Shown here one piece after another: positions 15,413 to 47,924 of a stretch of DNA of 61,726 bases. This DNA comes from a virus (Duplodnaviria > Caudoviricetes). Every line of letters begins with the position of its first letter. The stretch's first letter is position 1. The DNA is taken from the IMG/VR virus record IMGVR_UViG_3300046028_004204, positions 1-61,726 of that record, one strand, 5' to 3'. Below the pieces are notes generated by a model, which worked only from the letters and a program-made list of their open reading frames with translations, did not search any database and was not told the origin of the DNA. The position numbers and the translations under genes were made by a program.

Positions 15413-15413
15413 T

Positions 15414-30128: not shown

Positions 30129-30193
30129 AATGATCTCCTAGAAGTTAATGTATTTTATTATACAGTGAGTTGATCTTGATGTCAACAATTATT

Positions 30194-30394
30194 TCAAACT
30201 CTAGAACTGTAGACTTCTACAAATCCACGCCAAACTGTTCCAGTACTGCGTGTCATCTTGGCGGCCAATTGATCAGCTTGATCTTCTGCTAGAGATCGCT
30301 GTCGTAGCTCGAGTCGTGAGCCTGTGAGGTCCTGACTCATCACTGTCTGTCCAGTGAGAATGTTTCGTGCTTTGGCAATGAGGTATTGTTTCAT
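30194..30394 (-). CDS. Hypothetical protein
   Basis: ORF from MKQYLIAK. Confidence 0.5.
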   Translation of the reverse strand: MKQYLIAKARNILTGQTVMSQDLTGSRLELRQRSLAEDQADQLAAKMTRSTGTVWRGFVEVYSSRV

Positions 30395-30395
30395 A

Positions 30396-30578
30396 TTATA
30401 GTCCGAATTCCTGGGCAAAGGCTTCAGCTTGATCCTGATCAAAGAACTCCAAGGATAGCTGTTGGTTTTTGTAAATGACCTGATAGTCTAGATGCTCAAT
30501 GGCATTAATAGCCAGCCACGAATGCCAAGAGTCCTCTTCAACTAGATCGGCAATGGTCCAAGGTTTAGTGTATTTCAT
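30396..30578 (-). CDS. Hypothetical protein
   Basis: TAAATA 5 nt before ATG. Confidence 0.55.
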   Translation of the reverse strand: MKYTKPWTIADLVEEDSWHSWLAINAIEHLDYQVIYKNQQLSLEFFDQDQAEAFAQEFGL

Positions 30579-30586
30579 AAGTGTAT

Positions 30587-30817
30587 TTATTCATCAAACA
30601 GTGTTCTAATGACCCTAGTTTGCTCGGGATACTGTAACAGCCATAAACTGGCAAACTGTGCCTGGCTAAACAACATCCACCAATCTGTTACTATAGCGTA
30701 ATCATATTGAAAGTCTGTAACATGACTTCTAGGCCAAAAAGTAACCACACGCGGAGTCCACTGTTCAAGTAACAGTCTCTGATGATCCACAAAAGGTTCT
30801 AGATAGACTAACAGCAT
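30587..30817 (-). CDS. Hypothetical protein
   Basis: TAAATA 8 nt before ATG. Confidence 0.5.
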   Translation of the reverse strand: MLLVYLEPFVDHQRLLLEQWTPRVVTFWPRSHVTDFQYDYAIVTDWWMLFSQAQFASLWLLQYPEQTRVIRTLFDE

Positions 30818-30991
30818 ACTACGAGTATTTAATCGTAGGAGCCCAATTTAGGCCCAGTTCTTTAGAGCGCGAAGCGCCAAGCGGTAGCGCAGAAAATTTG
30901 CAAGAAATTTTTGAAATGAGTTATCAGAGTAGTTAATGCTTGCCCAGCGATCCTAGATCTACTGTGCTTCAACTGTGGTCTGCGGGAATCT

Positions 30992-31165
30992 TTACTTGTT
31001 GGATCTAAATATGCGATACAGTGCATAAGCTACTAGAACAGCAAATATGACTATAACTGTGATCTCTACTGTGGTAAGAGTGGGCAAGGGCTCTGGCTCA
31101 ACACGCTGAGGTCTGGGAACAACGGGCTGTGAGGCTAGATACTGTTCGCGGGCTTTGTTATCCAT
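30992..31165 (-). CDS. 57-aa single-TM protein (not in ORF track)
   Basis: MDNKAREQ...ITVIVIFAVLVAYALYRIFRSNK*; TAAATA 5 nt before ATG. Confidence 0.6.
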   Translation of the reverse strand: MDNKAREQYLASQPVVPRPQRVEPEPLPTLTTVEITVIVIFAVLVAYALYRIFRSNK

Positions 31166-31176
31166 ACTGTTATTTA

Positions 31177-31446
31177 CTATACAGCGCCTCTAAGTATGCT
31201 CATGGTGATTTCTTGATCCGCTATACGATAGACATTGTAGCACTCTCTGCGGATCTTCTTTTGGCTGGGTTTGCTTCTACGATTACCCGCTGATGAGTTC
31301 AATGGCTGTAACTGTACTTGATTTGAATTCTCATATAGTTGAATCACCCGGGCTAGTATGATTCTATTGTGTTCAGTGACTATGCAATGATCTCCTTCTT
31401 GAAGAGGAGCACCTGCGATATCACGATGTTGTAGAGTGTAGTTCAT
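31177..31446 (-). CDS. Hypothetical protein
   Basis: 89-aa ORF. Confidence 0.55.
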   Translation of the reverse strand: MNYTLQHRDIAGAPLQEGDHCIVTEHNRIILARVIQLYENSNQVQLQPLNSSAGNRRSKPSQKKIRRECYNVYRIADQEITMSILRGAV

Positions 31447-31623
31447 AGTGTGTATTGTTAGTTACTGTAGAAAAAGGTTATTGAGGGGTAAAAAAATTGG
31501 TCGCGTAAAAAATTAGGGTGGAGTACTTACGCTTTTGAGGTGGTGATTTGCTACCATACTGTTGTTATTATACAACACTATGTATGTATACCGGCCACCC
31601 CCCACCATAGCCCCACCATGACC

Positions 31624-31836
31624 TCATTGGTGCCTCGGTCTCATCTTCCTGGGACAATCTCTATCCATCTGAGGTCGGCAAGGTTGATGATCCCAATTGG
31701 GCAAGACATCGATTAGACTACGATGGCCTACGGGGTCCCACGGTGCGTCACGCCTGTCGTGTGTGGCGCAGCCTGTAACAGCTAACAAGCTGCTAGCGGC
31801 TAGCAATACGCTGCAAATACGCTGTGAGTTCTTCAT
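31624..31836 (-). CDS. Putative small lipoprotein
   Basis: LLAVTGC lipobox; start uncertain. Confidence 0.45.
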   Translation of the reverse strand: MKNSQRICSVLLAASSLLAVTGCATHDRRDAPWDPVGHRSLIDVLPNWDHQPCRPQMDRDCPRKMRPRHQ

Positions 31837-32017
31837 GTACTGTGTCCACTGTGTCTAGTTGTGCTGCTGTCATAAGCTCGCGTAACACTTGAGCTCTACG
31901 CTTATACGCAGGCGGCATAGCCTTAACCATAGCATCTACTGCGTCTAGTGTATCACAGTTCCACAGTAGGTTACATATCTCTATGTCCTTCTTTGACAGT
32001 CCTTCAAGTGTGATCAT
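31793..32017 (-). CDS. Hypothetical protein
   Basis: AAGGAG RBS, coupled to upstream gene. Confidence 0.6.
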   Translation of the reverse strand: MITLEGLSKKDIEICNLLWNCDTLDAVDAMVKAMPPAYKRRAQVLRELMTAAQLDTVDTVHEELTAYLQRIASR

Positions 32018-32205
32018 TCCCGTGCTCCTTCTACTGCATATGAAGCGCCTACTGCCATAAGCGCAATGCCTATGAGTGCGAATGTGCCTAAGTATATGCC
32101 ATCATATGTAGCCAAGTCCGGGCTAGTCTCAATGCCGCCTACAGTGCCTAACAACATAACAAGTCCTGTGTATAAGCAGAACAGGGCCTTTTGTCTTGTA
32201 GTCAT
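32014..32205 (-). CDS. Two-TM membrane protein
   Basis: Two hydrophobic segments; promoter and AAAGGA RBS. Confidence 0.65.
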   Translation of the reverse strand: MTTRQKALFCLYTGLVMLLGTVGGIETSPDLATYDGIYLGTFALIGIALMAVGASYAVEGARE

Positions 32206-32256
32206 CTTGTTTCCTTTGTGTGTATGTACGTAGTATAACAGTGTTTAGCCAAACTG

Positions 32257-32364
32257 TCAACCAAAAATGATAGTGCCTAGACCTGCAATAGCCAACAGCA
32301 GAGCTTGTGCAATACCAAAGTGGAACAAGAACCATACAACTGCAATTCCAACGATCCATTTCAT
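32257..32364 (-). CDS. 35-aa hydrophobic peptide (not in ORF track)
   Basis: MKWIVGIAVVWFLFHFGIAQALLLAIAGLGTIIFG*; own promoter and AAGGAG; TGA lies inside next TTGACA. Confidence 0.65.
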   Translation of the reverse strand: MKWIVGIAVVWFLFHFGIAQALLLAIAGLGTIIFG

Positions 32365-32478
32365 ATCAGCTCCTTTGTTGCTATGTGTCTAGTATACTGC
32401 CAAAAAGCCTCTGTGTCAACCTACGAAGTGCCCAGGCGTGTTGCAGGGTCTAGTGGTAGGCTGACACGTTGGCAATCT

Positions 32479-32865
32479 TTAGACCCAACCCTCTACCACC
32501 ATAACGGGCTTCTTAAGCACACGCTTGACAAAGGATTCTGGGTCGTCATCTACACGGGTCAACATATAGCCCATTGCCTCGCCCAAGTCTGCACTCTTAA
32601 TCTCTAGCTCTAGGCCGGCTGCTTCGAACGCTGCCTGCATACGTGTTAATGTATAACGGACACCTGCGTCGAATGCCTCGTACTCTGCTTGTCCGATCTC
32701 GTCACCGTCAAAGCCTGCATCCTCTAGCACTACGGCTGTCTCTGCGCCGTCAGCCACTACAAATTTGCCGATTTTCTTCCAGTTGCTCTGCTTCTCGCTG
32801 TCAAAGTGGTCACAGCATTCGTTGAGGTCAAAGCTGTTGAAGTTGTCATAATTTACTGTAGTCAT
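32479..32865 (-). CDS. Hypothetical protein
   Basis: Promoter and AAGGAGCG RBS. Confidence 0.7.
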   Translation of the reverse strand: MTTVNYDNFNSFDLNECCDHFDSEKQSNWKKIGKFVVADGAETAVVLEDAGFDGDEIGQAEYEAFDAGVRYTLTRMQAAFEAAGLELEIKSADLGEAMGYMLTRVDDDPESFVKRVLKKPVMVVEGWV

Positions 32866-32954
32866 TTGGTTCGCTCCTTGTTACTATGTGTCTATTATAC
32901 AACTAATTTGGCCAGTTGTCAACCTTTCTACAAAAGCCCTTGAGCTTTGTAGGG

Positions 32955-33152
32955 TCAATAGCTTTGGTGGCTATGACCAATGCGGTACATCACAGTGGGC
33001 ACAATCTCTTCTGTGTCCGGTGTGTACGGCTCTGGCAACATGATGGTTGCGAACTCGCCATAGCAGTAATAACCGCTTTCGGTCACTACCAACTCTGCGT
33101 CCTGAGGCAATGCCTCTAATGCCCGGATCATTTCTGCTACTGTTATTGTCAT
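32955..33152 (-). CDS. Hypothetical protein
   Basis: Promoter and AGGAG RBS; TVAEMIRALEALPQDAE. Confidence 0.7.
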   Translation of the reverse strand: MTITVAEMIRALEALPQDAELVVTESGYYCYGEFATIMLPEPYTPDTEEIVPTVMYRIGHSHQSY

Positions 33153-33242
33153 CTTGTTCTCCTACTTGTTTGTTGCTATGTGTCTATTATACAACCAAAA
33201 TGCCAAAGTGTCAACCAATTTTGTGTTGTATTATTGCAACAG

Positions 33243-33953
33243 TTAGAACTTCAACGATTCGTACTTGGTCAAGTCGTACTTGGATAGATCTGTGATGAAC
33301 GGTGTGCCCACAGTTACATCCAAGAAGAACAGCTCGTGGAATCTAGCCTTGATGTCTACTTGACCTTCCACTAGACTGCCTTTGTGTTGTATCCCCATTG
33401 GAATCTTGCCTTGTTCTACATGATCCTTACCAGGTGTGCGGCTCAACAGATGATATGGAACCCAGTAGTGGACGGCACCATTGCCGTAGAGCGCAGAGAA
33501 CAGGCCGTAGTTGGCACAGTCTGGTTTGACCTGTTGCCAAGTTCCTTTTTTAGAAGGCTGCACTTTAGAATCTAGCATGGGAATGCGGGTTGCACGTTCG
33601 GCCCATGTTAACGCATATCCGCGTTTATCGATTTGTTTTTTGCTGTCAGGAGTCATTACAGTAAAGAATTTAATCTCTACCAAGTCTCCTGTTAGATGTT
33701 GCGCTATCGACTGATCCAAGACAGCATCATGGTTGCCATTACGCTTGTCTAACAGTTGAGGGCATCCAGCTTTGAACTCGTTCTCCCAAGCATCACCGCG
33801 ATGCTTGGAAATACCCTCTTTAAACCATTTCTGCATGTCTGCAGGAAAACCGTAGGTATTAGTCCATCGAGTCATGTCTACCTCATCCTGGAACTCACGG
33901 AATGCCTTGGTATCCATTCCTACTACGTCTGCCATTGTGAAAGTTTTGGCCAT
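33243..33953 (-). CDS. PD-(D/E)xK restriction-endonuclease-like nuclease
   Basis: GDAWE...NHD...VEIK...WQQVKP spacing. Confidence 0.5.
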   Translation of the reverse strand: MAKTFTMADVVGMDTKAFREFQDEVDMTRWTNTYGFPADMQKWFKEGISKHRGDAWENEFKAGCPQLLDKRNGNHDAVLDQSIAQHLTGDLVEIKFFTVMTPDSKKQIDKRGYALTWAERATRIPMLDSKVQPSKKGTWQQVKPDCANYGLFSALYGNGAVHYWVPYHLLSRTPGKDHVEQGKIPMGIQHKGSLVEGQVDIKARFHELFFLDVTVGTPFITDLSKYDLTKYESLKF

Positions 33954-33961
33954 GTTAGTCC

Positions 33962-34219
33962 TTAGCTGGCGTTACGGAAGAAGTCTGCTGGCATTTCAAA
34001 GTAACCAGTCCACAGCAGACCAAAGATGTATATGGCTAACAGGACACCGTTAACGATGACCAAGTTCCATTCGCGAATCCTGATGCTCCAGATCAAGTAC
34101 AGAGCTGCACCTAGGTTCAGGAAGTAGATGTTCAAGGGATCGATGCGCAGGCTTGTGAAAGCTGCCCCAAGGACCACTGCCAAGCAGCCGGTCCATTTAA
34201 GTATGTTGTTTAAGTTCAT
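33962..34219 (-). CDS. Small membrane protein (leaderless)
   Basis: Three hydrophobic segments; ATG 6 nt after TATAAT. Confidence 0.7.
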   Translation of the reverse strand: MNLNNILKWTGCLAVVLGAAFTSLRIDPLNIYFLNLGAALYLIWSIRIREWNLVIVNGVLLAIYIFGLLWTGYFEMPADFFRNAS

Positions 34220-34284
34220 GTGTTAATTATATGCTCGTTTTGCCAAACTGTCAACCGACCCTAGACCCCGTAGGGTCTTTGTTG

Positions 34285-34428
34285 TTATGCTATAATTGTG
34301 TCGTCTAGCGCACAAGCTAACGCATTAAATGCGTTTTGTATTGCAACATGTTCGTCTAGTTCTGCTTCTTCTAGCACTGCTTGTAACTGCAACATTAAAC
34401 TGTCTAATTTGCTTTTTGTATTTTGCAT
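34285..34428 (-). CDS. 47-aa helical protein (not in ORF track)
   Basis: MQNTKSKLDSLMLQLQAVLEEAELDEH...DDTIIA*; own promoter. Confidence 0.6.
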   Translation of the reverse strand: MQNTKSKLDSLMLQLQAVLEEAELDEHVAIQNAFNALACALDDTIIA

Positions 34429-34499
34429 TGTTTGCTTTCTGTTAAAAAACAATTATAGCACACTTACATCCAAAATGCAAGTGTGCTACATAATAACCC

Positions 34500-34775
34500 T
34501 TACGCTGCCAGTGCTTTTACACGCACATACACAATTCCGCCATCCCTGCCGTGTACTGCACTTTTTGTAACTTTTACACTGTTTGCAAAGCCTGCTAAAA
34601 ATACAGCGTCTGCTACACGCTTTTGCAATGCTTGCATGTATGCTGTGTCTTGTCCGTAATTTACTGCACACGCAAGCAAACGCATGTTTTCGTCTGCACA
34701 CTTGTCCGTGTAAATTTTATTTACATTAAGTGTACTGCGCAAAATTGTACGCATTTGTAATGTAGTTGCTAACAT
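34500..34775 (-). CDS. Hypothetical protein (no Pro; TC/CC-free gene)
   Basis: Promoter and AAAGGAG RBS. Confidence 0.7.
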   Translation of the reverse strand: MLATTLQMRTILRSTLNVNKIYTDKCADENMRLLACAVNYGQDTAYMQALQKRVADAVFLAGFANSVKVTKSAVHGRDGGIVYVRVKALAA

Positions 34776-34863
34776 GTCTGCTCCTTTGTTGCTAAGTGTT
34801 AATTATAGCGCAAACAAGCCAAACTGTCAACCAAAATGCAAAAAGCCCTTACGGGCCTTAGGG

Positions 34864-35202
34864 TTATGCGTTCTGCATAAATGTGTTTATAAAGCACTCT
34901 CCCACATCGCACGACACATAAGTGTCCCCCTGCATCCCTTGCTCGCTGTAGCTTACATCGCTAGCGTCAAAGCCCAGCTGTGTAAGCAAAGCGCAAAGCT
35001 CTGCTTCAAACAAGCTGTCTGTGTATATGAGACCGTCTTTGTTGACATCCCATGTGTTTGTGTTAAAATACACGCGGAGCTCTCCGAAGTCCAGCTCGTC
35101 GTTAGTGTACGCTAACACAAGTCTAGTGACCTCAACGGCCGTTTGCTTGCGGCTCCAGTAGCCGTCGCCTGCTGTGTGTAGCGTTGCATTTACTTTGTAC
35201 AT
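34864..35202 (-). CDS. Hypothetical protein
   Basis: Promoter and AAAGGAG; GDGYWS, YSEQGMQG. Confidence 0.75.
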   Translation of the reverse strand: MYKVNATLHTAGDGYWSRKQTAVEVTRLVLAYTNDELDFGELRVYFNTNTWDVNKDGLIYTDSLFEAELCALLTQLGFDASDVSYSEQGMQGDTYVSCDVGECFINTFMQNA

Positions 35203-35282
35203 GAGTTCTCCTTTGTTGCTATGTGTTTATTATAGCACACACTTGTCCAAAATGCAAGTGTGTGCGTTAATAACCCTACAGT

Positions 35283-35534
35283 TTACTCTACAAATACAAT
35301 TTGTGTTGTACGCAAGTTTTGTTGTGCAATAGCCACAGTGCGTTGCACTTCGTTTTGCAAATCTTCTGCAAGTAAGTCCCCGCTAACATAGTTGCATTTT
35401 GCTTGTACAGGAAACTTATATTTGTAGTTAGTGCCTACTAACTCTTTGTGTACGTTAAATGCAATTTGCACTTTGTATGCGTTAATTTTTTTGTTGTAAA
35501 CTAGCTTTGCGTATGCTATGCACTGTGTAAACAT
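35283..35534 (-). CDS. Hypothetical protein
   Basis: Start MFTQ after AAAGGAG and promoter. Confidence 0.7.
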   Translation of the reverse strand: MFTQCIAYAKLVYNKKINAYKVQIAFNVHKELVGTNYKYKFPVQAKCNYVSGDLLAEDLQNEVQRTVAIAQQNLRTTQIVFVE

Positions 35535-35609
35535 TTTAGCTCCTTTTGTGTGTATGTGTTTATTATAACGCATACCGTCCAAAATGTCAACCAAAATGCA
35601 AGAGACCCT

Positions 35610-36002
35610 TTATGTTGTAGGGTTTTCCTTGATTAGCATGGCGCCATCAGCTTCTGCTATCACCAGTGTGACATTGGCTACCTTTTGGCTGATCATTGCG
35701 ATCAACTCGTCTCTGGTCTTGCCCTGTGCTAGGAACAGGCCACTGTCTTTACGATAGGCAAACATGAATTCACCGTGTTGTTCAACCTTGATCTCAAGTT
35801 TGGGGAACTCATCGGCGCGGCCTTCTTCTAGATCGATCTCCTTCTGGAGGTCCTTCATGACTGCTTCCAGCTTCTCGGGAGTGACTCCGGCCCTGCGAAA
35901 GATATCAGGGATCAAGGTCTTGTGCAGGGCATCAGCAACCTTATAGCCCACAATCGCACCCAGGATGCAGCCTAACACAAAGGCCAGTAGATCAAATTCC
36001 AT
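35610..36002 (-). CDS. N-terminal TM hypothetical protein
   Basis: 130 aa, coupled to upstream gene. Confidence 0.65.
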   Translation of the reverse strand: MEFDLLAFVLGCILGAIVGYKVADALHKTLIPDIFRRAGVTPEKLEAVMKDLQKEIDLEEGRADEFPKLEIKVEQHGEFMFAYRKDSGLFLAQGKTRDELIAMISQKVANVTLVIAEADGAMLIKENPTT

Positions 36003-36229
36003 TATTTCTTCCTTCTGCGAGAGACTTGAAACTCTCGATCGATATAGTACTGAATCAGGCTGCGTTGCATCAAGGTAACCAGATCACCATTGTCTTCTGG
36101 CACTATGAATCGTACAGGACAGGTGCCCCAGGTATGATTCATTTGGAACTCAGCAAAGAATCGACGATGATCCTTGTTGGTTGGATCGAAGGCCACCAAA
36201 GGCCTGCAATAGTATTCTAGTCTGCTCAT
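36002..36229 (-). CDS. Hypothetical protein
   Basis: Start MSRLEYY 5 nt after TAAATA. Confidence 0.65.
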   Translation of the reverse strand: MSRLEYYCRPLVAFDPTNKDHRRFFAEFQMNHTWGTCPVRFIVPEDNGDLVTLMQRSLIQYYIDREFQVSRRRKK

Positions 36230-36237
36230 ATGTTTAT

Positions 36238-36528
36238 TTACGCGAATTCCGGTTCGTTGATCTTGGTCAGCATGTTGGCCGGCACTCGCCATGCACCCTG
36301 TATGGTCTTGACTGTGACATACTTGATGGCGATCTTAGTGACTACACCTGTCACATTGCGGCCAGTCTTGCTGGATGTAAAGTTGACATTATCTCCGATG
36401 GTCAAGCTTCGTTTGGTCTGTTGAACCAGTTGGGCTCGGTTCCACTTGACTGCATCGATCATGCTACGAAGTTCGATGTCTGTCCAAGCACCGAACATGA
36501 TTGCTGAGTTGACTTGTTTGATATCCAT
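36238..36528 (-). CDS. Hypothetical protein with SH3/KOW-like C-terminus
   Basis: LTIGDNV.F...GVVTKI..KYV.V; promoter and AAGGAG. Confidence 0.65.
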   Translation of the reverse strand: MDIKQVNSAIMFGAWTDIELRSMIDAVKWNRAQLVQQTKRSLTIGDNVNFTSSKTGRNVTGVVTKIAIKYVTVKTIQGAWRVPANMLTKINEPEFA

Positions 36529-36647
36529 GGAGTTCTCCTTAGTTGATGTATGTATTATAGCACCGATCGCCAACCTTGTCAACCAAAAAAAACCCTAGTA
36601 CCGATGTACTAGGGTGTTAAAGTTACCGTACCGGGAGCGAATCGGAT

Positions 36648-36950
36648 TTACGCGGTAACTGTCTCTGCCTTCTTGGCAGTAGCTTTAACAGCCTGGGGGG
36701 CTGGATTTTTCTTTTCAGCGTAGGCAATGGCAGCTTCGATAGCAGCATCACCTTGACCGAATCCAACACTCTTGAGATGTTGAACCGCTTCGGCCTTGGT
36801 CATTTCAACTGGTAGTTCAACCAGCTCGACTCCGGTGTGGCCATTCTTGGCCAGGATCTTGATACGCATGGTATCGTTAGCGAAACGAAGCTTGGTCTTG
36901 CCTTCGAGGGTTGATACGCCTGCAACCGCAAATTTCTTATCTGTACTCAT
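36648..36950 (-). CDS. Hypothetical protein
   Basis: Start MSTDKK; GAAGGA RBS; promoter. Confidence 0.7.
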   Translation of the reverse strand: MSTDKKFAVAGVSTLEGKTKLRFANDTMRIKILAKNGHTGVELVELPVEMTKAEAVQHLKSVGFGQGDAAIEAAIAYAEKKNPAPQAVKATAKKAETVTA

Positions 36951-37040
36951 TTTAAAGTTTCCTTCTGTGTGTGTTTGAAAATTTATGCTGTTCTTCAGCA
37001 TGTTATTAGTGTAACATCGTTTTGGAATGGAGTCAACCAT

Positions 37041-37220
37041 TCATTTTACCAAATTGACCTGGATAGTCACTGCCTCCTTTTCATCAAGAGCTGCCACGAA
37101 GTCTTCACCCATCAAGAGCTCTTGCAGAGTCAAATCGATCATGTTCTCGGCTGCAACCAAGTCGGGTGTACCTTCTCCGGCACACTCTACAGTGAACATA
37201 AAGGTGTAGATGCGGCTCAT
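37041..37220 (-). CDS. 59-aa protein (not in ORF track)
   Basis: MSRIYTFMFTVEC...QVNLVK*, ATGA-coupled. Confidence 0.55.
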   Translation of the reverse strand: MSRIYTFMFTVECAGEGTPDLVAAENMIDLTLQELLMGEDFVAALDEKEAVTIQVNLVK

Positions 37221-37846
37221 AATGCAATCAAAGCCTTCTTCTGCTCAGCACCGTCCTTGATCCATTCGGTGAGTTCTTCCTCTTCGTTCTCTGCTTCGTA
37301 TTCAGCCATTGATTCTGAGATACCAAACATGTCGTCCAGCTCATCACCGATAGCGGCTCGAATGGTATTGGAGTTCTCACCACTGTATTCGTAGTAGTCA
37401 TCACAGCCATTCTCCCACTTGCCCACAAAGCCCATACCGGGTTCGTAGTAGTAAAGGGTCACTTCGAAGCCTTGCTCAACCAAAGCCTCGCAGACTTGAG
37501 TAGGTGGGCTCCAGGCACTTTCAAACGGTGCGGAGAAGCTCAAGCCATCCTCTTCGATCTCTGCGGTATCGCCGTTGCCGCCGATCTCCCACTTGGTGCC
37601 CCAATTGGCCACATTGAAGTCATACCAGTTGGCATAACCATACTTCTCTAGATTGGCCGCACTCTTGGCCTCTAGTTCAGCCTGCTCTGCGCCGTCACCC
37701 AGGCGTCCTGAAGTGATGTTGAGTTCTTCTGGCATAGGCACTACCGTACCGCAGAACTCACCGTTGTCGAATGCATCAGCCAATCGCTTGATTGCCACAG
37801 GGTCGGTGCCACGCACCGTGATATGATTTGAACACCAATTAGGCAT
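37217..37846 (-). CDS. DUF1281/Api92-like protein
   Basis: MPNWCSN, NWYD...NWGTKW, FESAWSPP, YYEPGMGF. Confidence 0.7.
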   Translation of the reverse strand: MPNWCSNHITVRGTDPVAIKRLADAFDNGEFCGTVVPMPEELNITSGRLGDGAEQAELEAKSAANLEKYGYANWYDFNVANWGTKWEIGGNGDTAEIEEDGLSFSAPFESAWSPPTQVCEALVEQGFEVTLYYYEPGMGFVGKWENGCDDYYEYSGENSNTIRAAIGDELDDMFGISESMAEYEAENEEEELTEWIKDGAEQKKALIAL

Positions 37847-37858
37847 AATTGCTCCTTG

Positions 37859-38068
37859 TTAGTCTGTAAAAAAGCGGTTCATCAACGATTGATTGATCAT
37901 GTCCATTTCGGACTGCTCAACATAGAAGTCTGTCTTGGGATCCCAGTACTGACCTTCTTTGTTGCAATAATACAACACCCTACCTGAGAAGTTGAACGGA
38001 CCTTCTAGTCCTTTTCGGGGACCATACTTCTCACGCATGTTATCGAATTCAAATGTCTTGTAGCCCAT
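37859..38068 (-). CDS. Hypothetical protein
   Basis: GLEGPF..GRVLYY...EGQYWDPKTD; promoter. Confidence 0.7.
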   Translation of the reverse strand: MGYKTFEFDNMREKYGPRKGLEGPFNFSGRVLYYCNKEGQYWDPKTDFYVEQSEMDMINQSLMNRFFTD

Positions 38069-38123
38069 CGCTCGCTCCTTGTTGCTGTCTATGTGTTTAT
38101 TATAGCACCAATCTGCCTACCTG

Positions 38124-38321
38124 TCAACCAAAAGCGAACTCTTTGACCCAATCAAATTTAGTGCTTGCTGGAACCCACTTGAACTCAGACTTCTTGCGAT
38201 CAGTCTTTTCAAAGTCCATGCACACCATGACCCAACCACGCTCAGAGCTGAAGCCCACGGTGTCAGCGACCCGAACCACTTCAACTACCCTGCCGTCTGT
38301 CATCTTTGCTACTTTGATCAT
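38124..38321 (-). CDS. Hypothetical protein
   Basis: Promoter and AAGGAG. Confidence 0.65.
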   Translation of the reverse strand: MIKVAKMTDGRVVEVVRVADTVGFSSERGWVMVCMDFEKTDRKKSEFKWVPASTKFDWVKEFAFG

Positions 38322-38369
38322 CTTGTGCTCCTTACTATAACTCTAGTATAGCACCGATCATCCAAATGG

Positions 38370-38606
38370 TCAACCAATTTGTGTGTTGCAGAACTGCCAC
38401 ATCTTGTAGGCATCCCCTTTAAGACCCATCAAGATCCCTTCGTAGTCTCTGTAGGAACAGCAGGCCCATGTGCTTTGAGGACGATAAACCCAACCATCGT
38501 GTTCCCGCTCGGTGTTGTGTTGAGTAACAATGCGGCGAGCAGTTGCTGCCTTCTTGTAATACTTCTCCATCCACCCGCTCTTGGTGTCGTAGACTACCCA
38601 TCCCAT
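38370..38606 (-). CDS. Hypothetical protein
   Basis: 78-aa ORF. Confidence 0.6.
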   Translation of the reverse strand: MGWVVYDTKSGWMEKYYKKAATARRIVTQHNTEREHDGWVYRPQSTWACCSYRDYEGILMGLKGDAYKMWQFCNTQIG

Positions 38607-38628
38607 TTACTTCCCCGATATCATTCGT

Positions 38629-38952
38629 TCAACCATGTTGGCCCACGTGTTTGCAGGCACCTCGGAAAGTGAACCCTGGACAGGTACAGGTTTTTTCTTC
38701 TGGGTCGATTGTGTATTCATTTCCGTTACTTCCTTTTACCTTGATTAGATTAGATTGCGCCTTGACCTTAAACGGATTAGGAGTTACAGTTGCGAACTTC
38801 CTGCCTCGCTTGTCAAACCCTTTAATAGGATTCTTAAAATAGAATGGTTCAGTTTCTCCACTCTTTATATACGATACCAGTTTGTTTCCATCCAGTAGGT
38901 ATATGTGCGGGGGGAACTGCCCCCCAGTTGTTTCCTGGAGGGCTTCCATCAA
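38629..38952 (-). CDS. SWIM zinc-finger protein
   Basis: CTCPGF..RGACKH. Confidence 0.75.
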   Translation of the reverse strand: MMEALQETTGGQFPPHIYLLDGNKLVSYIKSGETEPFYFKNPIKGFDKRGRKFATVTPNPFKVKAQSNLIKVKGSNGNEYTIDPEEKTCTCPGFTFRGACKHVGQHG

Positions 38953-39302
38953 TCCAACCTGCTTCCTGCGTAGACCTTGTCCAAGCCCAACTTGGTCTTG
39001 ATCACTTCTGCGTAGGCCTCAGCACCTGCTTCCAGAACGCTGACACTCTGCACACCTGCTTGGCTTGGATTCCAAAGTTGGAGACTGCCTGTGTAGGATT
39101 TGCGGAAGCCAGCGGCCTGCAACCACTTGCCCAACTTGCTGTTCGAGCGCACACCGTAGACATCCACCCAAGCAAAGCCACAAGCATCACGATCGCCATG
39201 CTTCTGCAGGAATGCCTTAGCGGCTGTACGGGCCTGCATGCCAGCTTCGTTGGTTGCGTCCTGTACTGCCTGCTCTGTGATTACCGTTGCGATTGCATTC
39301 AT
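38949..39302 (-). CDS. Hypothetical protein
   Basis: CGFAWV motif; promoter and AGGAG. Confidence 0.7.
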   Translation of the reverse strand: MNAIATVITEQAVQDATNEAGMQARTAAKAFLQKHGDRDACGFAWVDVYGVRSNSKLGKWLQAAGFRKSYTGSLQLWNPSQAGVQSVSVLEAGAEAYAEVIKTKLGLDKVYAGSRLD

Positions 39303-39381
39303 TTTCAGCTCCTGTTTGCGTTGTTGATGTCTAATTATAACCCCAAACTGCCAAAGTGTCAACCGAATGGATAAAGACCCT

Positions 39382-39561
39382 TCAACTGTTCAGGGTATTG
39401 TAGGGATCGTACTCTTGTGGCGCATCTGCCACACCCATTTCCTCTAGTGCGCCTAGCACCAACTCGATAGGGCACTCCAGCATGATTGCGATCACCTTGG
39501 CGCTGTGGCCTTCGATGTACAGTTGCTCGATGTCGTATGATAGTTCTGCCATTTTGCTCAT
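39382..39561 (-). CDS. 59-aa possible HTH protein (not in ORF track)
   Basis: MSKMAELSYDIEQLYIEGHSAKVIAIMLECPIELV...; AAAGGA RBS. Confidence 0.6.
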   Translation of the reverse strand: MSKMAELSYDIEQLYIEGHSAKVIAIMLECPIELVLGALEEMGVADAPQEYDPYNTLNS

Positions 39562-39782
39562 TGTGTTTCCTTTTGTGTGTGTTGTTTAATCATCAAGTAT
39601 AAGGGATCTATAATCTCTTCGTGCTCTAGTTCAAAGTCTCTTGTGGCCCAGTCCACCCACTCTTCGGTGAACACTTCCACTTCACTGTTCTGTAGCATCT
39701 CACGAGCCTTCTCTTCACTCTCGCACTCTACCACATAGACTTCTGCGACAATAGCATTGCGCCAGAAGGTGAACCTTTTCAT
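39558..39782 (-). CDS. Hypothetical protein
   Basis: Coupled ORF. Confidence 0.6.
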   Translation of the reverse strand: MKRFTFWRNAIVAEVYVVECESEEKAREMLQNSEVEVFTEEWVDWATRDFELEHEEIIDPLYLMIKQHTQKETQ

Positions 39783-40075
39783 TATACTACATCAACAAAG
39801 ATGTTACGACCGTAGACATTGTCTACTACGAATCCTGGACTGCAAGGGCAAGAGCAACCTGCAAATTGGCTCCACTTGGCACGAGGCATGATCTTGCCAT
39901 CGTTCCAGCCCAGTTGCTCGAACAGCTTAGGAAGCATCTTGCGATATTCGTTATAAGGACGGCTCTTGCGATTCATTAGGTTCTCCATCACTGTCTCGCT
40001 GGACGGATGGAAGTAGATACGAGTCTTAACATAACGACCGTGTTGCTCGCCTACTGTGACTTTAGAAATTTCCAT
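39782..40075 (-). CDS. Hypothetical protein
   Basis: WSQFAGCSCPCSPGF; promoter. Confidence 0.7.
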   Translation of the reverse strand: MEISKVTVGEQHGRYVKTRIYFHPSSETVMENLMNRKSRPYNEYRKMLPKLFEQLGWNDGKIMPRAKWSQFAGCSCPCSPGFVVDNVYGRNIFVDVV

Positions 40076-40115
40076 ATCGCGCTCCTTTTTGTGTCTGTGT
40101 ACGTATTATAGCAGC

Positions 40116-40373
40116 TTATACCCAATCTGTCAACTGGTAGTCTGCAATAACCCTATTCTCTGTGTGGTCATATGTTAGGAACACTTTGGTGCTGTCAGTG
40201 CCGCCCTTGACCTGGAACACAACCGTATAGGCAAACTGTCCGCCATTGGTGATGCCCAAGAAGCGCGAGCTAGTGAACTCCGGACCCGTGTAGCCTGCAT
40301 CCATAGCCGCACGAGTTAGAGCAGGCGCTGTGAATGTAGTGAGGATTTTGAGTGTGTCTGCTGTGATCATCAT
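40116..40373 (-). CDS. Hypothetical protein
   Basis: FLGITNGGQFAY; promoter. Confidence 0.65.
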   Translation of the reverse strand: MMITADTLKILTTFTAPALTRAAMDAGYTGPEFTSSRFLGITNGGQFAYTVVFQVKGGTDSTKVFLTYDHTENRVIADYQLTDWV

Positions 40374-40516
40374 TGCTCCTTAGTATGTGTCTATTATACA
40401 ACAGATCGGACGACCTGTCAACCAAAAAAAAGTAACCCTAGGGCAAGTAGGGTTACTATGTACGCACGTAAGCAGCGGGGCCTGTTGCTAAAAAGCCACA
40501 GCCCCTGGCACTTCCG

Positions 40517-41740
40517 TTATGCCGCTTCTTTCTCGTAGATCACAGTCTGACCAAAGGGTGCTTCTGCTTCTGTATTGCCTTTGACAATAAAGATTGTGTC
40601 GCAGTAGTCCTCATCGCCCCAACCACCACAGGGGTAGCCGTCTGTGAACATGATGAACTTCTTGGGCTGGATGCCCTGTTCCTTCATGAACTCCCAGTTG
40701 GCTTCAAAGTCAGTACCGCCACCACCTTCGGGCTCATACTCAAACAGCTCTTCCGAATTGTCTTGTGTGAACTCTTGGTGATTGTAAATTGCAGTATCAA
40801 AGCACCACAGATTGATCTTGAAGTCCTCGTACTGATCAACAATGCCTTTGACTTCGCTAAGGAATACAGTTGCATCCTCTTGTCCAATGCTTCCGCTCAT
40901 GTCAATGCTAATACCAATGTCAATGGTAGTTGCTTCTTTCATGCCCGGCAGGATTGCACCTGAGTGCATACTCTTACGGTTAGGACGAGTGAACGAATAG
41001 TCGTTGCGGATGATGCTTTGGATCTCTTGACGCACAAGGTCACGCCAGCTAATCTTAGGCTCAGTCATGTCCTTGATCATACGCTGGATGCCTGCGGGCA
41101 CCTTACCAGCACCTGCCGCCGCGGCACTCTGGATCATAGCCTCTTTGATCTCATCACGGATCTGTTGGGCTTCTTCTTTAGTCATGCCAGGCATACCCTT
41201 GCCCTGCTTGTCACCGCCTTCACCCTCTTTGCCAGGACCTGAACCATCTTCGTTGATGTGCTCGTCCAACAAGTCGCCCAATTGCTTGAGCAAGTCTGGC
41301 ATTGAAATCTTCTCAGCCTTTTCGTACAAGAGATCATAGATCTCTTCCCAAGCCAAGCCGCGATACTTTGGATCATAGCAGATCTTAACTTCAGTGATCT
41401 TCTCACCAATGCGTTCGTCTACAAGGATCTGATTGACAGCGTAGTCTTGTGCAATGTTAGACAGCTGACGATCGCGTGAACCTACGCGACCAAAGTGATC
41501 AAACACGCAATGGCAAATCTCGTGTCCAAAGAGGAACTCCAGCTTCTTGACACTGAGCTTCTGCACGAACTTGGTATTGTAGTAGAAATTGCGACCGTTA
41601 GTTGCGGCAGTCGGGCACCACTCGTCTGCTTCAATCAGTTGCATACGGGTTGCCATGTTGCCGAAGAAAGGTGCTTTGAGCAACAGGCCTACACGGGCTG
41701 TTGTCAGTTTGTCGATGATTGCTGGATCTGTCTTTGCCAT
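40517..41740 (-). CDS. Metallopeptidase-like + vWA domain protein (DUF2201-like)
   Basis: TAATNG, HEICH (HExxH), DMSGS MIDAS, GGGGTDF, FTDGY. Confidence 0.88.
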   Translation of the reverse strand: MAKTDPAIIDKLTTARVGLLLKAPFFGNMATRMQLIEADEWCPTAATNGRNFYYNTKFVQKLSVKKLEFLFGHEICHCVFDHFGRVGSRDRQLSNIAQDYAVNQILVDERIGEKITEVKICYDPKYRGLAWEEIYDLLYEKAEKISMPDLLKQLGDLLDEHINEDGSGPGKEGEGGDKQGKGMPGMTKEEAQQIRDEIKEAMIQSAAAAGAGKVPAGIQRMIKDMTEPKISWRDLVRQEIQSIIRNDYSFTRPNRKSMHSGAILPGMKEATTIDIGISIDMSGSIGQEDATVFLSEVKGIVDQYEDFKINLWCFDTAIYNHQEFTQDNSEELFEYEPEGGGGTDFEANWEFMKEQGIQPKKFIMFTDGYPCGGWGDEDYCDTIFIVKGNTEAEAPFGQTVIYEKEAA

Positions 41741-41888
41741 TACTCGCTCTCCTTAGTATGTGTTTATTATAGCACCAATCCGGGGTCTTGTCAACCGACC
41801 GGGATGTTGTATTTAAACAACACCCCGGCACCCTGTAGGTGGGCGGGCAAGCCCTGAGAAGCCTCCCGCCCTTGCAATGGGCGAGGTC

Positions 41889-42974
41889 TTAATTCTCCAT
41901 TGCACTCAAAACATACTTACCGAACCGCTTGTGGAACTCGTCGAAGCTCTTCATCTTCGTTGCGTCAAAGGGCAGGTTGTAGTTTGTCAAGCCTGTCTTT
42001 GCACCCATCACCACCAACTCAGTTGGGAAATTGTCCATCATGTAGCGGAAGAAGCAGTCAGCCTGGGCATCAAAGTCCTTGGCCTTCTTCTCTGCTTGAT
42101 CCTTCAACTCGTAGCACAGGCTAACGGTCAAAGAATACATGGCACTCACTTCTTTAATCTGCAAGTCCTTGACCTTGCCTTTAAGGATGTCTTCTGCCTT
42201 AGGCAAGCGACCTGCAATCTTGCGGTGAGCCATAAACTTCACAGCCAAGCCGTCACCGACCGCACCTGCGATCAGGTTGTGCAAGGTGTCAATGTCGCAG
42301 TCGTCGTCTTTCAACAAGTCTGACACAAAGACCCACGAGCGTGGAGTAGCAAAGGCCTTGCTTGGGCTCTTAGGATCAAAGTCGTACAAGTCCTGCTTGG
42401 CGAAGCCAACATAACCTACAACCTCTGGATGCACATTGTTCATCACAGCCCATTCCTGGAAGTCATCGAAGTCAATCTTCATTTCCAAGTGAATGAAACG
42501 ATTAGCCAACGGAGCAGGCATTCTGTAAGTAACACCGCGGTCGCCTTCTCTGTTACCAGCGGCAACCACATCAACACCCTTAGGCAATTCATATGTACCT
42601 ACACGACGATTCAAAATCAATTGGTAGGCAGCGGCCTGTACCGCAGGAGGAGCGGAGTTCAGCTCGTCCAAGAAGATAACTGCGGTGGACTCTGGGTCCG
42701 TAGGAAGCTCACTAGGAGGAGCCCAAACCATCTTGCCTTGATCTGCATTGTAATAAGGGATACCTTTGATGTCGGTAGGTTCCCAAAGTGCAAGGCGCAC
42801 ATCAACTACCTCACGACCTGCGTCCTCGCCAATCTGCTTGACGATGTCGGACTTACCAATTCCTGGGGGACCCCACAGGAACACAGGGCGGCGGGTTTGA
42901 ATCGCCTTACGGATGGAACGCTTCGCTGACTTAGGGCCAACTTGACGAACGCTAATATCTGTGGACTTTGCCAT
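41889..42974 (-). CDS. MoxR-like AAA+ ATPase
   Basis: GPPGIGKS, FLDELN, AAGNR, LANRF, TPRSW. Confidence 0.9.
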   Translation of the reverse strand: MAKSTDISVRQVGPKSAKRSIRKAIQTRRPVFLWGPPGIGKSDIVKQIGEDAGREVVDVRLALWEPTDIKGIPYYNADQGKMVWAPPSELPTDPESTAVIFLDELNSAPPAVQAAAYQLILNRRVGTYELPKGVDVVAAGNREGDRGVTYRMPAPLANRFIHLEMKIDFDDFQEWAVMNNVHPEVVGYVGFAKQDLYDFDPKSPSKAFATPRSWVFVSDLLKDDDCDIDTLHNLIAGAVGDGLAVKFMAHRKIAGRLPKAEDILKGKVKDLQIKEVSAMYSLTVSLCYELKDQAEKKAKDFDAQADCFFRYMMDNFPTELVVMGAKTGLTNYNLPFDATKMKSFDEFHKRFGKYVLSAMEN

Positions 42975-43056
42975 TTTAAGACCTCTTTCTTTTCTCAGGA
43001 TTAAACAAACTATCGCTTTCTCAGTGTTATTAGTATAACACCAAACATCTCAGTTG

Positions 43057-43692
43057 TCAAGCTCTTTTTACGAAATTTAATTGTGTTGTATTATCGCCAC
43101 GAACACTTTTAATCTTTGCTTTGATGCTCAACTTCTGCCCTGCTTCCAAGTTACTATTATACCAGAAATCCACGAAGCTGTCAACCAGTTTAGCGGTAAC
43201 CCTGAACTTGTCATAGTCTTTGCTGTAATAGCACTTGACAACCTCGATCTCGCCCTGGATCTTGTCGCCTACAGCGCCCTGCAATTGAGTAGAAGCACGA
43301 ACTTCACGGGCCAACTCGTTGCGGCTTTGATCACGGATCATAACGCTAGGCAAGCAGGAAACGATAGCGAACTCCAGCATATGACGGCCAGTGAACTCGT
43401 CCATCTGTGCGATGCGGAGGGCCTGCTGTTCGAACTCGTTGATCTTACCGCTGATCTGTTTCAGCAAGAAGCCGTTGAAGTAGCTACGGATCTCGCGGCC
43501 CTTCTCAATGTCCTCTTCTGTTGCTTCGGTAAGGGCGCCTGTACGGAGCCACTCTTTGACCATCATCTTGTTGGCCTGTGTGGTGCGCTTGCGGCATTCA
43601 CCTTCGTAGACATAAACATCTTCCTTGAAGTAGCCACCGTTGATACGATCTGCGGCCACTGCCAAACCCCAAACTTGATCTGATGTAAACAT
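43057..43692 (-). CDS. Hypothetical protein, possible C-terminal OB fold
   Basis: Start MFTSDQ after GGAGCGA; beta-rich C-terminus. Confidence 0.65.
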   Translation of the reverse strand: MFTSDQVWGLAVAADRINGGYFKEDVYVYEGECRKRTTQANKMMVKEWLRTGALTEATEEDIEKGREIRSYFNGFLLKQISGKINEFEQQALRIAQMDEFTGRHMLEFAIVSCLPSVMIRDQSRNELAREVRASTQLQGAVGDKIQGEIEVVKCYYSKDYDKFRVTAKLVDSFVDFWYNSNLEAGQKLSIKAKIKSVRGDNTTQLNFVKRA

Positions 43693-43854
43693 CGTTCGCT
43701 CCGTTTTGTTGTCTATGTCGTTATTATATAGCCAATCGTGGATGCTGTCAACCGAAATGATTGGAGTGCCGGAAAAGAGAAAAGGTGTTGTATTTCTACA
43801 ACACCCCAAACTAGCGCCCCGGGAGCGAATCGGCTTGCCTGTTTGAAACCTTAC

Positions 43855-44133
43855 TTAGGCTGTCAGGGTAAGACCTAGGCTCTTGGCCATGTAGCCAAGT
43901 GCAACGATCTCACGGCTTGGGCGACCCAATTCGTACTCAGTTACCTGAACACCATTACCAGCTTTGCGGCTGTTGGCATACACGGCATAACCTGCTTGGC
44001 GGATGCGTGAAGCTTCTGCTGATAGGTTCTTAACACCGAAACGCTTTGCGGCGTCGGAGGCTGTCAACTTCTCACCCTTTTGTAGGGCGGCAAAGATCTT
44101 GCCTGTTTTGGTTTCTAAATTAATTCTCTTCAT
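43855..44133 (-). CDS. Winged-HTH DNA-binding protein
   Basis: LQKGEKLTASDAAKRFGVKNLSAEASRIRQAGY. Confidence 0.7.
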   Translation of the reverse strand: MKRINLETKTGKIFAALQKGEKLTASDAAKRFGVKNLSAEASRIRQAGYAVYANSRKAGNGVQVTEYELGRPSREIVALGYMAKSLGLTLTA

Positions 44134-44206
44134 TTTAAGTTTCCTCTGTATAGCTGTGTCTCACAGCGTTCTACTAGTATATAGAACCTGTGGGCACAAT
44201 GCAACC

Positions 44207-44398
44207 TCAATCTTTCCGTTTAACGGTGACATTTGCCCGAAGGAAGGCACCAATCAAAACGGTAGCACACCATGTCTCCAAATTGTAAGGAATCATGAGA
44301 GCTGCTCCGAACAAGACATTCCACGACCACAGAACCAGGAACGGTCCTATGGCCAATAGGAATATAATGAACACTACAGCCAATGCAATTTTAATCAT
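44207..44398 (-). CDS. Small membrane protein
   Basis: Two hydrophobic segments. Confidence 0.6.
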   Translation of the reverse strand: MIKIALAVVFIIFLLAIGPFLVLWSWNVLFGAALMIPYNLETWCATVLIGAFLRANVTVKRKD

Positions 44399-44612
44399 TT
44401 AGGATCTCCTCGACCTCTTCAATCAGTTTGATCTCAGCCAGCTCTTTCTCGATGGCCGCGATCTTTCGTTTGTTACCTGAGCTGGTACCTTTCTTGTACA
44501 CTGTCCAGATATGCTCTTCACAGTATACACGACCCGGGAAGGGTTTGCAACCACACATCTTGAACGGGTGGTTTACCTGCTCCGGGCCAATGTATTGGCA
44601 CCCTTCCATCAT
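44391..44612 (-). CDS. Small Cys/His protein (GcrA C-terminal-like)
   Basis: CQYIG...CG......YCEEH. Confidence 0.55.
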   Translation of the reverse strand: MMEGCQYIGPEQVNHPFKMCGCKPFPGRVYCEEHIWTVYKKGTSSGNKRKIAAIEKELAEIKLIEEVEEILND

Positions 44613-45661: not shown

Positions 45662-45739
45662 TTCTCGCTCCTTCTGTGTGTGTAAGTCTCTATTATATGA
45701 CAAATAGGGGCTGTTGTCAACCCCTATCAATCATAACCC

Positions 45740-46222: not shown

Positions 46223-46260
46223 CTCGCGCTCCTTTGTGTGTGTAAGTCTCTATTATACGG

Positions 46261-46632: not shown

Positions 46633-46633
46633 G

Positions 46634-46900: not shown

Positions 46901-46980
46901 CGTTCGCTCCTTTGTTAACATGTCTCTATTATAAGGCCAAAACAGCAGCCTGTCAACCAAAGACCCTACAGGGCCTAGGG

Positions 46981-47262: not shown

Positions 47263-47263
47263 A

Positions 47264-47873: not shown

Positions 47874-47924
47874 TCGTGTTACGCTGCGCACTGCTGCTGT
47901 TTCTCTAGTTGCTGCTATTAATAG

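Follow-up and report, generated by a model that had tools for sequence, protein, structure and literature searches.

Small early genes without TC or CC on the sense strand in an uncultured freshwater jumbo phage and its relatives

We analysed a stretch of 61,726 nucleotides (nt) from the Caudoviricetes record IMGVR_UViG_3300046028_004204 of IMG/VR; this whole stretch is called the window. Its minus strand contained one locus of four small genes, here called the island, in which the sense strand was almost free of the dinucleotides TC and CC. These two are written together as YC (5′-YC-3′ on the sense strand) and appear on the plus strand as GA and GG, together GR. The locus is a recurrent array of exchangeable small immediate-early gene cassettes found across a phage clade. 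Selection has purged YC from it, and we tentatively suggest that the purge hides the first phage messages from the Rho protein of the host.

From 34276 to 34852 (577 nt) the plus strand contained 94 G residues, none of which was followed by A or G. The full GA/GG-free run extended from 34275 to 34853 (579 nt) and forms the main tract of the minus strand, composed of two genes with their promoters and spacers. A second minus-strand tract (35204-35602) was broken only by the TCC of a Phe-Pro codon pair, seen on the plus strand as GGA at 35410-35412; between 35205 and 35601 there were thus one GG and one GA, both in this triplet, which splits the tract into runs of 207 nt (35204-35410) and 191 nt (35412-35602). 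The intervening gene (34853-35204) was partly depleted, with 15 GR among 81 G. Elsewhere in the window the longest GA/GG-free run was 120 nt, and the longest TC/CC-free run of the plus strand was 108 nt. The bias reached the proteins: Pro was absent from three of the four open reading frames (ORFs), and the fourth had one, at the Phe-Pro junction. The flanking genes used GATC, GA and GG freely, with YC observed/expected ratios of 0.85-1.12 and 332 GATC sites (5.4 per kb) in the window. These features had been read from the letters alone in an original prediction, and each of them was found again, from the empty tract with its promoters and spacers to the single GGA, the half-depleted gene between the tracts, the loss of Pro and the ordinary flanks. 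The same prediction took the genes for early genes, correctly so.

The controls showed that this pattern is neither due to chance nor an effect of coding. When all 120 dinucleotide pairs were compared as a look-elsewhere control, GA+GG gave a normalised longest gap of 57.1, and the pairs independent of the island did not exceed 18.7. Synonymous codons were resampled 5000 times per gene at the frequencies of 30 other early genes, and 10.0, 19.1, 20.1 and 20.0 YC were predicted for the genes of 47, 91, 112 and 84 amino acids (aa), versus 0, 0, 10 and 2 observed. No draw reached the observed value for the 47-, 91- and 84-aa genes, and 0.5% of the draws reached it for the 112-aa gene. At the codon junctions of 17 island genes (four in the window and 13 in relatives), 5 YC were observed versus a mean of 99.6 in codon-order shuffles, and the minimum of 2000 shuffles was 79. 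The spacers and promoters of the island were purged as well. Since YC is equally avoided at codon junctions, in spacers and in promoters, the purge is a frame-independent constraint at the level of the nucleic acid and not of codons or tRNAs. Amino-acid composition and codon bias, which the original prediction had named as a possible ordinary source of GR-free runs, are rejected by these controls.

Weaker depletion was seen in some other places. Two small early genes on the minus strand (31793-32017 and 32129-32359) were partly depleted of YC, with observed/expected ratios of 0.39 and 0.46, and the remaining genes outside the island had ratios of at least 0.56. In three island genes (34285-34775 and 35283-35573, minus strand) GA and GG were also scarce on the sense strand (observed/expected 0.43-0.47), the YC/GR step there being scarce on both strands and absent on only one. 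In the pooled islands of the related phages the sense-strand odds were 0.71 for GA and 0.83 for GG, weaker than in the three window genes.

The island is real and no assembly chimera, which was the other ordinary source that the prediction had considered. Eighteen lake-water metagenome runs, one of them possibly the source sample, contained at least 83% of the sampled words from 33000-37000, and the contigs of an independent run covered all 30 bins, the long pieces being without differing letters. The recurrence of the pattern in the many independent assemblies of related phages (below) also excludes a chimera. Two of 20 strain variants inside the island gave GA or GG when all were applied together, versus 22.5% of the possible single changes, a sample too small for a conclusion. 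Contigs of RNA libraries (three libraries from three studies) also matched parts of the island, with DNA carry-over possible: those of X19 covered 34781-35005 and 35061-35211 without differing letters, those of X23 covered 34291-34431 and 35276-35532, and X21 gave many pieces. They are at most a weak hint of island expression. The RNA contigs gave no cover at 33268-34071 and 35680-36081, both of which the DNA run covers, and we draw nothing from this gap.

The same pattern was found in related phages. The 112-aa protein had 150 relatives in IMG/VR, from which 80 loci were kept, and 40 were added from the family alignment of the 84-aa protein; 123 loci were scanned, all oriented with the gene on the plus strand. 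They contained 40 YC-free runs of at least 300 nt, corresponding to 20 non-redundant tracts with a total of 12,238 nt. The longest tracts were 1327 nt (L021/L022/L023), 1288 nt (L133) and 922 nt (L128-L131), and further ones were 760 nt (L119/L121) and 661 and 423 nt (L011/L012). On the opposite strand of the 123 loci, used as control, no run exceeded 162 nt, versus up to 1327 nt on the sense strand. The tracts begin at or just behind the 84-aa gene and commonly end at a GC-rich terminator, and the small genes that they cover differ between phages.

Each genome has one island. The 98%-complete relative G006 (353 kb) contained exactly one long run, of 922 nt, and its next longest was 160 nt; the former is located in the 10-kb bin with 17 of the 26 consensus promoters of its minus strand, the densest cluster. 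The 90-kb record G001 had a single YC-free island of three adjacent runs. In the complete but more distant G005 (383 kb) no run was longer than 227 nt. Homologues of the 112-aa gene had from 0 to 36 YC, and in the tree of this protein strongly depleted alleles were placed in at least three separate clades, beside sisters at a normal density of 5.7-10.7 YC per 100 nt. The purged state has therefore been gained or lost repeatedly, under a selection that is long-lasting and recurrent.

Codon usage was compared between 28 fully YC-free island genes (2306 codons) and 239 flanking genes (23,288 codons). The codons TCN, CCN, NTC and NCC were all absent from the island genes. Pro was encoded by none of the 2306 codons, versus 3.6% in the flanks; Ser was encoded by AGY 129 times and never by TCN, and Phe by TTT 83 times and never by TTC. 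For Val, Leu, Thr and Ala the C-ending codons were absent and replaced mainly by A-ending, not T-ending, codons; for Thr, ACA reached 69% (50% expected) and ACT 23% (37% expected). After a purine the C-ending codons were preferred, and GAC made up 82% of the Asp codons versus 56% in the flanks. The conserved Ser of the 112-aa gene was encoded by TCN in 12 of 12 positions in the unpurged relative L048, and by AGC in the purged clade. Because a change from TCN to AGC is impossible by C-to-T mutation alone, and because the replacement is by A-ending codons, selection and not C-to-T decay drives the purge. The alignment of homologues, which the original prediction had proposed for separating selection from a scar of YC to YT, thus decided for selection.

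In the 20 pooled tracts TC and CC were both zero, and the odds were 1.04 for CT, 1.42 for TT, 1.63 for AC and 1.83 for GC. This dinucleotide pattern fits recognition of C after Y rather than a general avoidance of C or of pyrimidines. The C content decreased from 22.0% in the flanks to 18.2% in the tracts, and the purines increased from 53.8% to 58.5%. The sense strand of the tracts was A-rich (34.6% A), not T-rich. Typical Rho utilization (rut) sites have C above G; C was lower than G (24.0%) in the tracts, but this is also so in the flanks (22.0% and 25.2%), and the difference is weakly discriminating. Selection for unstructured RNA is not supported: 70 island segments of 120 nt folded at −24.8 kcal/mol, versus −21.6 kcal/mol in mononucleotide shuffles. 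They fold less stably than the flanks (−28.8 kcal/mol), in line with a G+C content of 41.8% versus 47.6%.

The purge is on the sense strand only and independent of frame, and YC is tolerated in paired stems, which suggests that YC is read on single-stranded RNA or, alternatively, on the non-template DNA strand when it is displaced. To our knowledge, the only reader of YC in bacterial RNA is the primary binding site of Rho. We favour, with a confidence somewhat short of even, the reading that the array is a cis-encoded, Rho-proof transcription unit, in which the YC purge hides the messages from the Rho primary site. Every cassette carries a sigma-70 promoter of consensus or near-consensus sequence together with a strong Shine-Dalgarno site, and would therefore be transcribed by host RNA polymerase. 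Selection has removed YC from the sense strand within codons, across junctions and in spacers, and C is kept after purines. The purge would act on the single-stranded transcript and make it invisible to a host factor reading YC. The Rho primary site would then find no YC on the island transcript, and the first phage messages could be completed even where ribosomes lag behind the polymerase, with no antiterminator protein needed.

The published work on Rho agrees with such a role. According to PMC5314796, the Rho primary site has six clefts that take one YC dinucleotide each, and both termination and ATPase activity fall when a single YC is mutated. PMC13323073 (Nat Microbiol 2026) describes that Rho avoidance drives purine bias and codon choice in Bacilli, where polymerases outrun ribosomes, and that this is a barrier for foreign and phage genes. 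For T4, PMC2988021 reports that Rho added in vitro limits transcription to immediate-early RNA. The residual YC of the tracts are mostly base-paired in the stems of terminator hairpins, or belong to the Phe-Pro pair; in the stems they would be tolerated because they are paired there and hidden from a reader of single-stranded RNA. The purine content of 58.5%, the C below G and the excess of A-ending codons fit the Rho reading as well. The nearest cultured relatives, too, infect Proteobacteria (Pseudomonas, Agrobacterium, Sinorhizobium and Xanthomonas), a group that has Rho.

Several points weigh against Rho as the reader. Tracts of 600-1300 nt have no YC at all, although several YC within 60-90 nt are required by Rho; a few residual YC should thus be nearly neutral, yet all are gone, and a total purge together with the loss of Pro better fits an agent for which each single site does harm. 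The final ~80 nt before the terminal terminator are also purged, where loading of Rho would have little effect. In many lineages 2-14 YC persist in the leading 84-aa gene, and 27 in its most distant homologue (L152), whereas the downstream cassettes have none, and other early genes with equally good promoters have YC observed/expected ratios of 0.7-1.1. The early region of the cultured relative PA5oct, a jumbo phage of which the first 50 kb were scanned, contained no such tract (longest run 187 nt, YC observed/expected 0.77-0.94). For the host of this phage itself, the presence of Rho is presumed from the hosts of its cultured relatives. A search for the Rho RNA-binding domain detected it in the control genomes of E. 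coli and Caulobacter but in none of five phage records, which speaks against a Rho encoded by the phage. Finally, known Rho avoidance is a mild genome-wide bias and no local purge (PMC13323073).

The original prediction had listed four alternatives, and Rho was not among them. The one that competes most seriously is that the messages escape an enzyme which attacks single-stranded RNA at YC and does harm by a single hit, such as an endoribonuclease or a base modifier (for example an ADP-ribosyltransferase). Its source would be a host defence toxin or a phage shut-off factor, and genes needed while the enzyme is active would find a safe harbour in the array. We consider it unlikely, though well worth keeping in view, that an undescribed freshwater-bacterial or phage enzyme cuts or modifies single-stranded RNA at every YC and that the array is such a harbour, recombining, in which any cassette is recoded YC-free and Pro is given up, so that changing counter-defence proteins can be made under attack. 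A purge that is complete over 0.6-1.3 kb, with Pro gone from all the codons counted, suggests that each YC is costly, and its restriction to the sense strand, its independence of frame and the tolerance of YC in hairpin stems all agree with an RNA target. The high turnover of cassettes is in agreement too, and the island proteins are small, acidic and of no known family, like many counter-defence proteins. CmdT, which modifies GA in mRNA, is a precedent for dinucleotide-specific attack. We know of no nuclease or RNA modifier with UC/CC specificity, however, and the full-text literature search found none; moreover, the TCC of the leading gene and the 10 YC of the 112-aa gene in the window would leave both genes unprotected, and the gain of A-ending codons and purines beyond the removal of YC is not predicted. 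The idea of evading a UC/CC-specific ribonuclease is viable as a mechanism but has no known enzyme to carry it. More improbable, in our view, is a selective protection of the non-template DNA strand, which is exposed as a single strand in the transcription bubbles and R-loops of this very heavily transcribed locus. The threat would be an enzyme of single-stranded DNA that targets YC, with an APOBEC- or SsdA-like cytosine deaminase, a dC-specific endonuclease and the TNTC modifier DarT2 as candidates. The purged strand is indeed the non-template strand, and the island of the 98%-complete relative is found where its promoters are most densely clustered. APOBEC-type deaminases prefer the CC context among others. 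TC is likewise a preferred context of theirs (PMC7449416), and DarT2 acts on TNTC/TCTC in single-stranded DNA. But transcription continues when the non-template strand is damaged, YC has been kept in other early genes with strong promoters, the literature search gave no anti-phage DNA cytosine deaminase, and the tolerance of YC in RNA terminator stems is less directly explained. The TNTC target of DarT2 is absent from the tract, necessarily, since TC is absent. Avoidance of a DarT-type modifier, as proposed in the original prediction, could account at most for TC through this motif; that CC is purged as fully, and that only one locus is affected, it leaves unexplained.

The other accounts have far less in their favour. 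A passive scar, left without selection by repeated C-to-T deamination or ultraviolet (UV) damage at YC of the non-template strand, would agree with the enrichment of TT on the sense strand and with the exclusive use of TTT for Phe. It is rejected as it had been proposed, and we regard it as highly improbable: the Ser codons of the purged clade need more than one base substitution each, the lost C-ending codons became mainly A-ending ones on an A-rich strand, and the ORFs are intact and conserved. UV lesions, besides, are of consequence when on the template strand, and the main site of dimers, TT, shows enrichment and not avoidance. An APOBEC-type footprint, with YT gained for the lost YC, was looked for and not seen, the gain being in A-ending codons. 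Avoidance at the level of double-stranded DNA would mean that restriction or modification sites containing GA or GG are removed, or that the template strand is kept free of the 7-deazaguanine that DpdA places at GA/GGC, a context reportedly known from phage CAjan. GATC, TCGA, GGCC and CCGG, none of which fits on a GR-free strand, are all absent from the 577-nt run; however, only ~7 palindromic sites would be expected there while ~45-50 GR have been removed, GATC is common in the window, and the purge is on one strand and at one locus only. No gene of the TGT/DpdA family (PF01702) was found in any of nine related records, two of them 100% complete and one the island-bearing 98%-complete record, the 17%-complete record of the window itself standing outside this search. 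The avoidance of GA/GG sites suggested earlier is accordingly not supported, and we give this account very little chance. Least of all do we believe in a translation-level effect, in which codons are avoided through depleted tRNAs such as those for Ser-UCN or Pro. It would explain why four codon classes are missing from the 28 island genes, but tRNA supply explains neither the loss of YC at codon junctions nor the purged spacers and promoters.

The island is organised as follows, all features being on the minus strand except the last hairpin, for which no strand is assigned. Behind an ordinary upstream 130-aa gene there is a hairpin followed by a T-rich tail (35602-35625), which was read by eye and is absent from the terminator scan, and the YC-free tract begins directly behind it. 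The first island gene has the consensus sigma-70 promoter TTGACA-17-TATAAT at 35562-35590 and encodes the basic 84-aa protein (35283-35537); it has 2 YC and is the conserved leading island gene in the relatives. The partly purged 112-aa gene (34864-35202), with 10 YC where ~20 are expected, has its promoter TTGCAT-17-TATAAT at 35229-35265, overlapped by an 11-bp inverted repeat with the arms GCACACACTTG and CAAGTGTGTGC. This repeat is made of AC/GT steps only and is thus itself YC-free on the sense strand; the palindromic promoter module recurs in relatives. An intrinsic-terminator-like hairpin (34842-34859) follows the 112-aa gene, and the CCC of its stem ends the YC-free run at 34853. The 91-aa gene (34500-34775) lies behind a consensus sigma-70 promoter (34802-34830), and the 47-aa gene (34285-34428) behind the promoter TTGCAT-17-TATAAT at 34452-34490, which is within a long inverted repeat that also scored as terminator-like (17 pairs, then ATTGTTTTTT). 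Both of these genes have 0 YC and no Pro. The downstream end is a GC-rich hairpin (34257-34278), whose stem holds the first YC after the island. Every island gene has an AAGGAG-type ribosome-binding site. Outside the hairpin stems and the 112-aa gene, the only YC is in the TCC of the Phe-Pro pair of the 84-aa gene. These residues, F41-P42, are invariant in 26 of 26 aligned homologues, and the single TCC is tolerated because the pair is invariant and Pro cannot be encoded without CC.

The promoters at 35562-35590, 34802-34830 and 34226-34254 match TTGACA, a 17-bp spacer and TATAAT at 12 of 12 positions, and in the other two island promoters the −35 element is TTGCAT. The three TTGACA-type promoters, two inside the island and one at its downstream edge, contain no YC from −35 to −10. 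As ~10 of 24 early promoters are likewise YC-free over this interval (read by eye from the promoter list), the island promoters say nothing on action at the DNA level versus the RNA level. The internal promoters are embedded in inverted repeats (35229-35265 and 34452-34490; in L021, 3175-3215, 3405-3445 and 3935-3975) with ~11 bp per arm and a 9-nt centre overlapping the −35 element, one copy of which scores as terminator-like. Such a repeat might bind a dimeric regulator as its operator, or might form an RNA hairpin at the end of the upstream cistron. Metagenome contigs were found that join across 34431-35209, 34434-35208 and 34463-34782 (one joint in RNA library X21 and two in DNA run X2). 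They are natural variants without one or two cassettes, with the joints between repeated promoter modules, which indicates that the array shuffles its cassettes by recombination.

No known family was found for the island proteins, which had no PHROG match and no Pfam match above the cut-off, and the ESM Atlas gave no lead. The 91-aa protein had one relative (L087, 82% identity), which is also nearly YC-free. L021 encodes an identical 47-aa protein, placed elsewhere in its array. Among records of cultured phages, the 112-aa protein matched only two Xanthomonas jumbo phages (38-39% identity); the 84-aa protein had no match in phage records, and no phage record was nearly identical at the DNA level. 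A 153-aa island protein in L021 resembles, by eye, a paralogue of the 112-aa protein. AlphaFold models reached a pLDDT of 88.1 for the 84-aa protein and a pLDDT of 95.6 with a pTM of 0.89 for the 112-aa protein. Neither model had a PDB fold match at E≤0.001, and the weak RNase-H-like and GyrA-like top rows of the fold searches were judged not meaningful. On the basis of its model, the 112-aa protein may have a new fold. The island proteins were small and acidic, with K+R at 6.0% versus 11.0% in the flanks. Small size, acidity and quick turnover are as expected of host-takeover or counter-defence genes, and the island genes are probably of this kind.

The window is the entire record, which has an estimated completeness of 17% and is therefore a fragment of a ~350 kb genome. 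The phage is an uncultured freshwater jumbo phage. Its DnaB-like helicase matched most closely that of the Pseudomonas jumbo phage PA5oct (56% identity), and next those of jumbo phages of Agrobacterium, Sinorhizobium, Salicola, Xanthomonas and enterobacteria. The left third of the window contains replication proteins and a large set of genes for sugar nucleotides, glycosyltransferases and methyltransferases. A long series of sugar-nucleotide/glycan genes extends over 1363-21000 on the plus strand, including a cytidylyltransferase/mannose-6-phosphate isomerase fusion, a GDP-mannose 4,6-dehydratase, a DegT-type aminotransferase, a short-chain dehydrogenase, at least four glycosyltransferase-like proteins, and FkbM-type and other methyltransferases. 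Their products could glycosylate DNA, the virion or the host surface. ACGT was rare in the window (33 sites, 0.53 per kb).

Small genes behind sigma-70 promoters occupy ~30-48.5 kb of the minus strand. The motif TTGAC-N18-TATAAT had 26 matches in the window versus 1.95 expected by shuffling; 25 of the 26 were on the minus strand, and 22 fell within 30157-48429 of that strand. Judged by these promoters, ~30-48.5 kb is probably the early region, transcribed by host RNA polymerase. Many early promoters at 30157-48429 are preceded by an upstream element similar to TTGCATTTTGG. Among the small early genes, also on the minus strand, there were a 407-aa protein of the HNH-endonuclease family (40517-41740, phrog_1314) and a 361-aa ATPase (41889-42974, phrog_1297), and the far end of the region contains three tRNA genes, Leu-TAA, Arg-TCT and Met-CAT (47786-48096).

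A strand-specific, local and nearly complete purge that is kept across gene turnover in many related phages is a very strong footprint of selection. It shows that infected cells contain a reader of YC, which acts either on the island messages or on the corresponding non-template strand. Should it be Rho, these would be the first natural phage genes that are Rho-proof by their own sequence alone; the locus would be the extreme of the Rho-driven purine bias and would offer a simple design rule for genes that escape polarity. Should it be an undescribed nuclease or modifier, the locus would be categorically new, showing the specificity of an enzyme before the enzyme is found and marking the genes that the phage protects most. 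Either reading is directly testable by synonymous recoding. A full-text literature search, which covered few subscription journals, gave no description of a YC-free phage locus.

Some features of the island are shared with known systems. In the avoidance of restriction sites by phages a short signal is also selected out, sometimes on one strand, and in T7 the EcoP15I sites are oriented on one strand; but such avoidance concerns defined sites of 4-8 bp across the genome, and the island concerns a signal of 2 nt on the sense strand of one locus. The pre-early regions of SPO1 and T5 are early host-takeover arrays with many strong host-type promoters. According to the annotation of its record, the terminal repeat region of PA5oct resembles the island as a dense one-strand array of small early genes with host-type promoters, but in the first 50 kb, its early region, it has no YC-free tract. 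Lambda N and Q and P4 Psu are trans-acting antitermination or anti-Rho factors of phages. They face, like the T4 immediate-early to delayed-early transition (PMC2988021), the same problem of bringing early host-polymerase transcripts past Rho. In these cases proteins or RNA sites modify the polymerase or inhibit Rho, whereas the island transcript itself would lack the binding signal. The Rho-avoiding purine bias described in PMC13323073 is similar in that the sense strand is biased against the pyrimidine signal of Rho and codon choice is shaped; it is mild and genome-wide in the own genes of the host (54% purine in B. subtilis), while the island purge is total, local to one phage locus of 0.6-1.5 kb, without Pro, and keeps other pyrimidine dinucleotides. 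The APOBEC3 footprint in human viruses is likewise a depletion of pyrimidine-C in viral genes for which a host enzyme is blamed, and it is partial, belongs to eukaryotic hosts and is ascribed to DNA deamination (PMC7449416); in the island the replacement is not C-to-T, CC is purged as fully as TC, and one array only is affected. The locus thus differs from Rho purine bias, restriction avoidance and APOBEC depletion in being total, local and one-stranded, and in being kept across the turnover of its cassettes.

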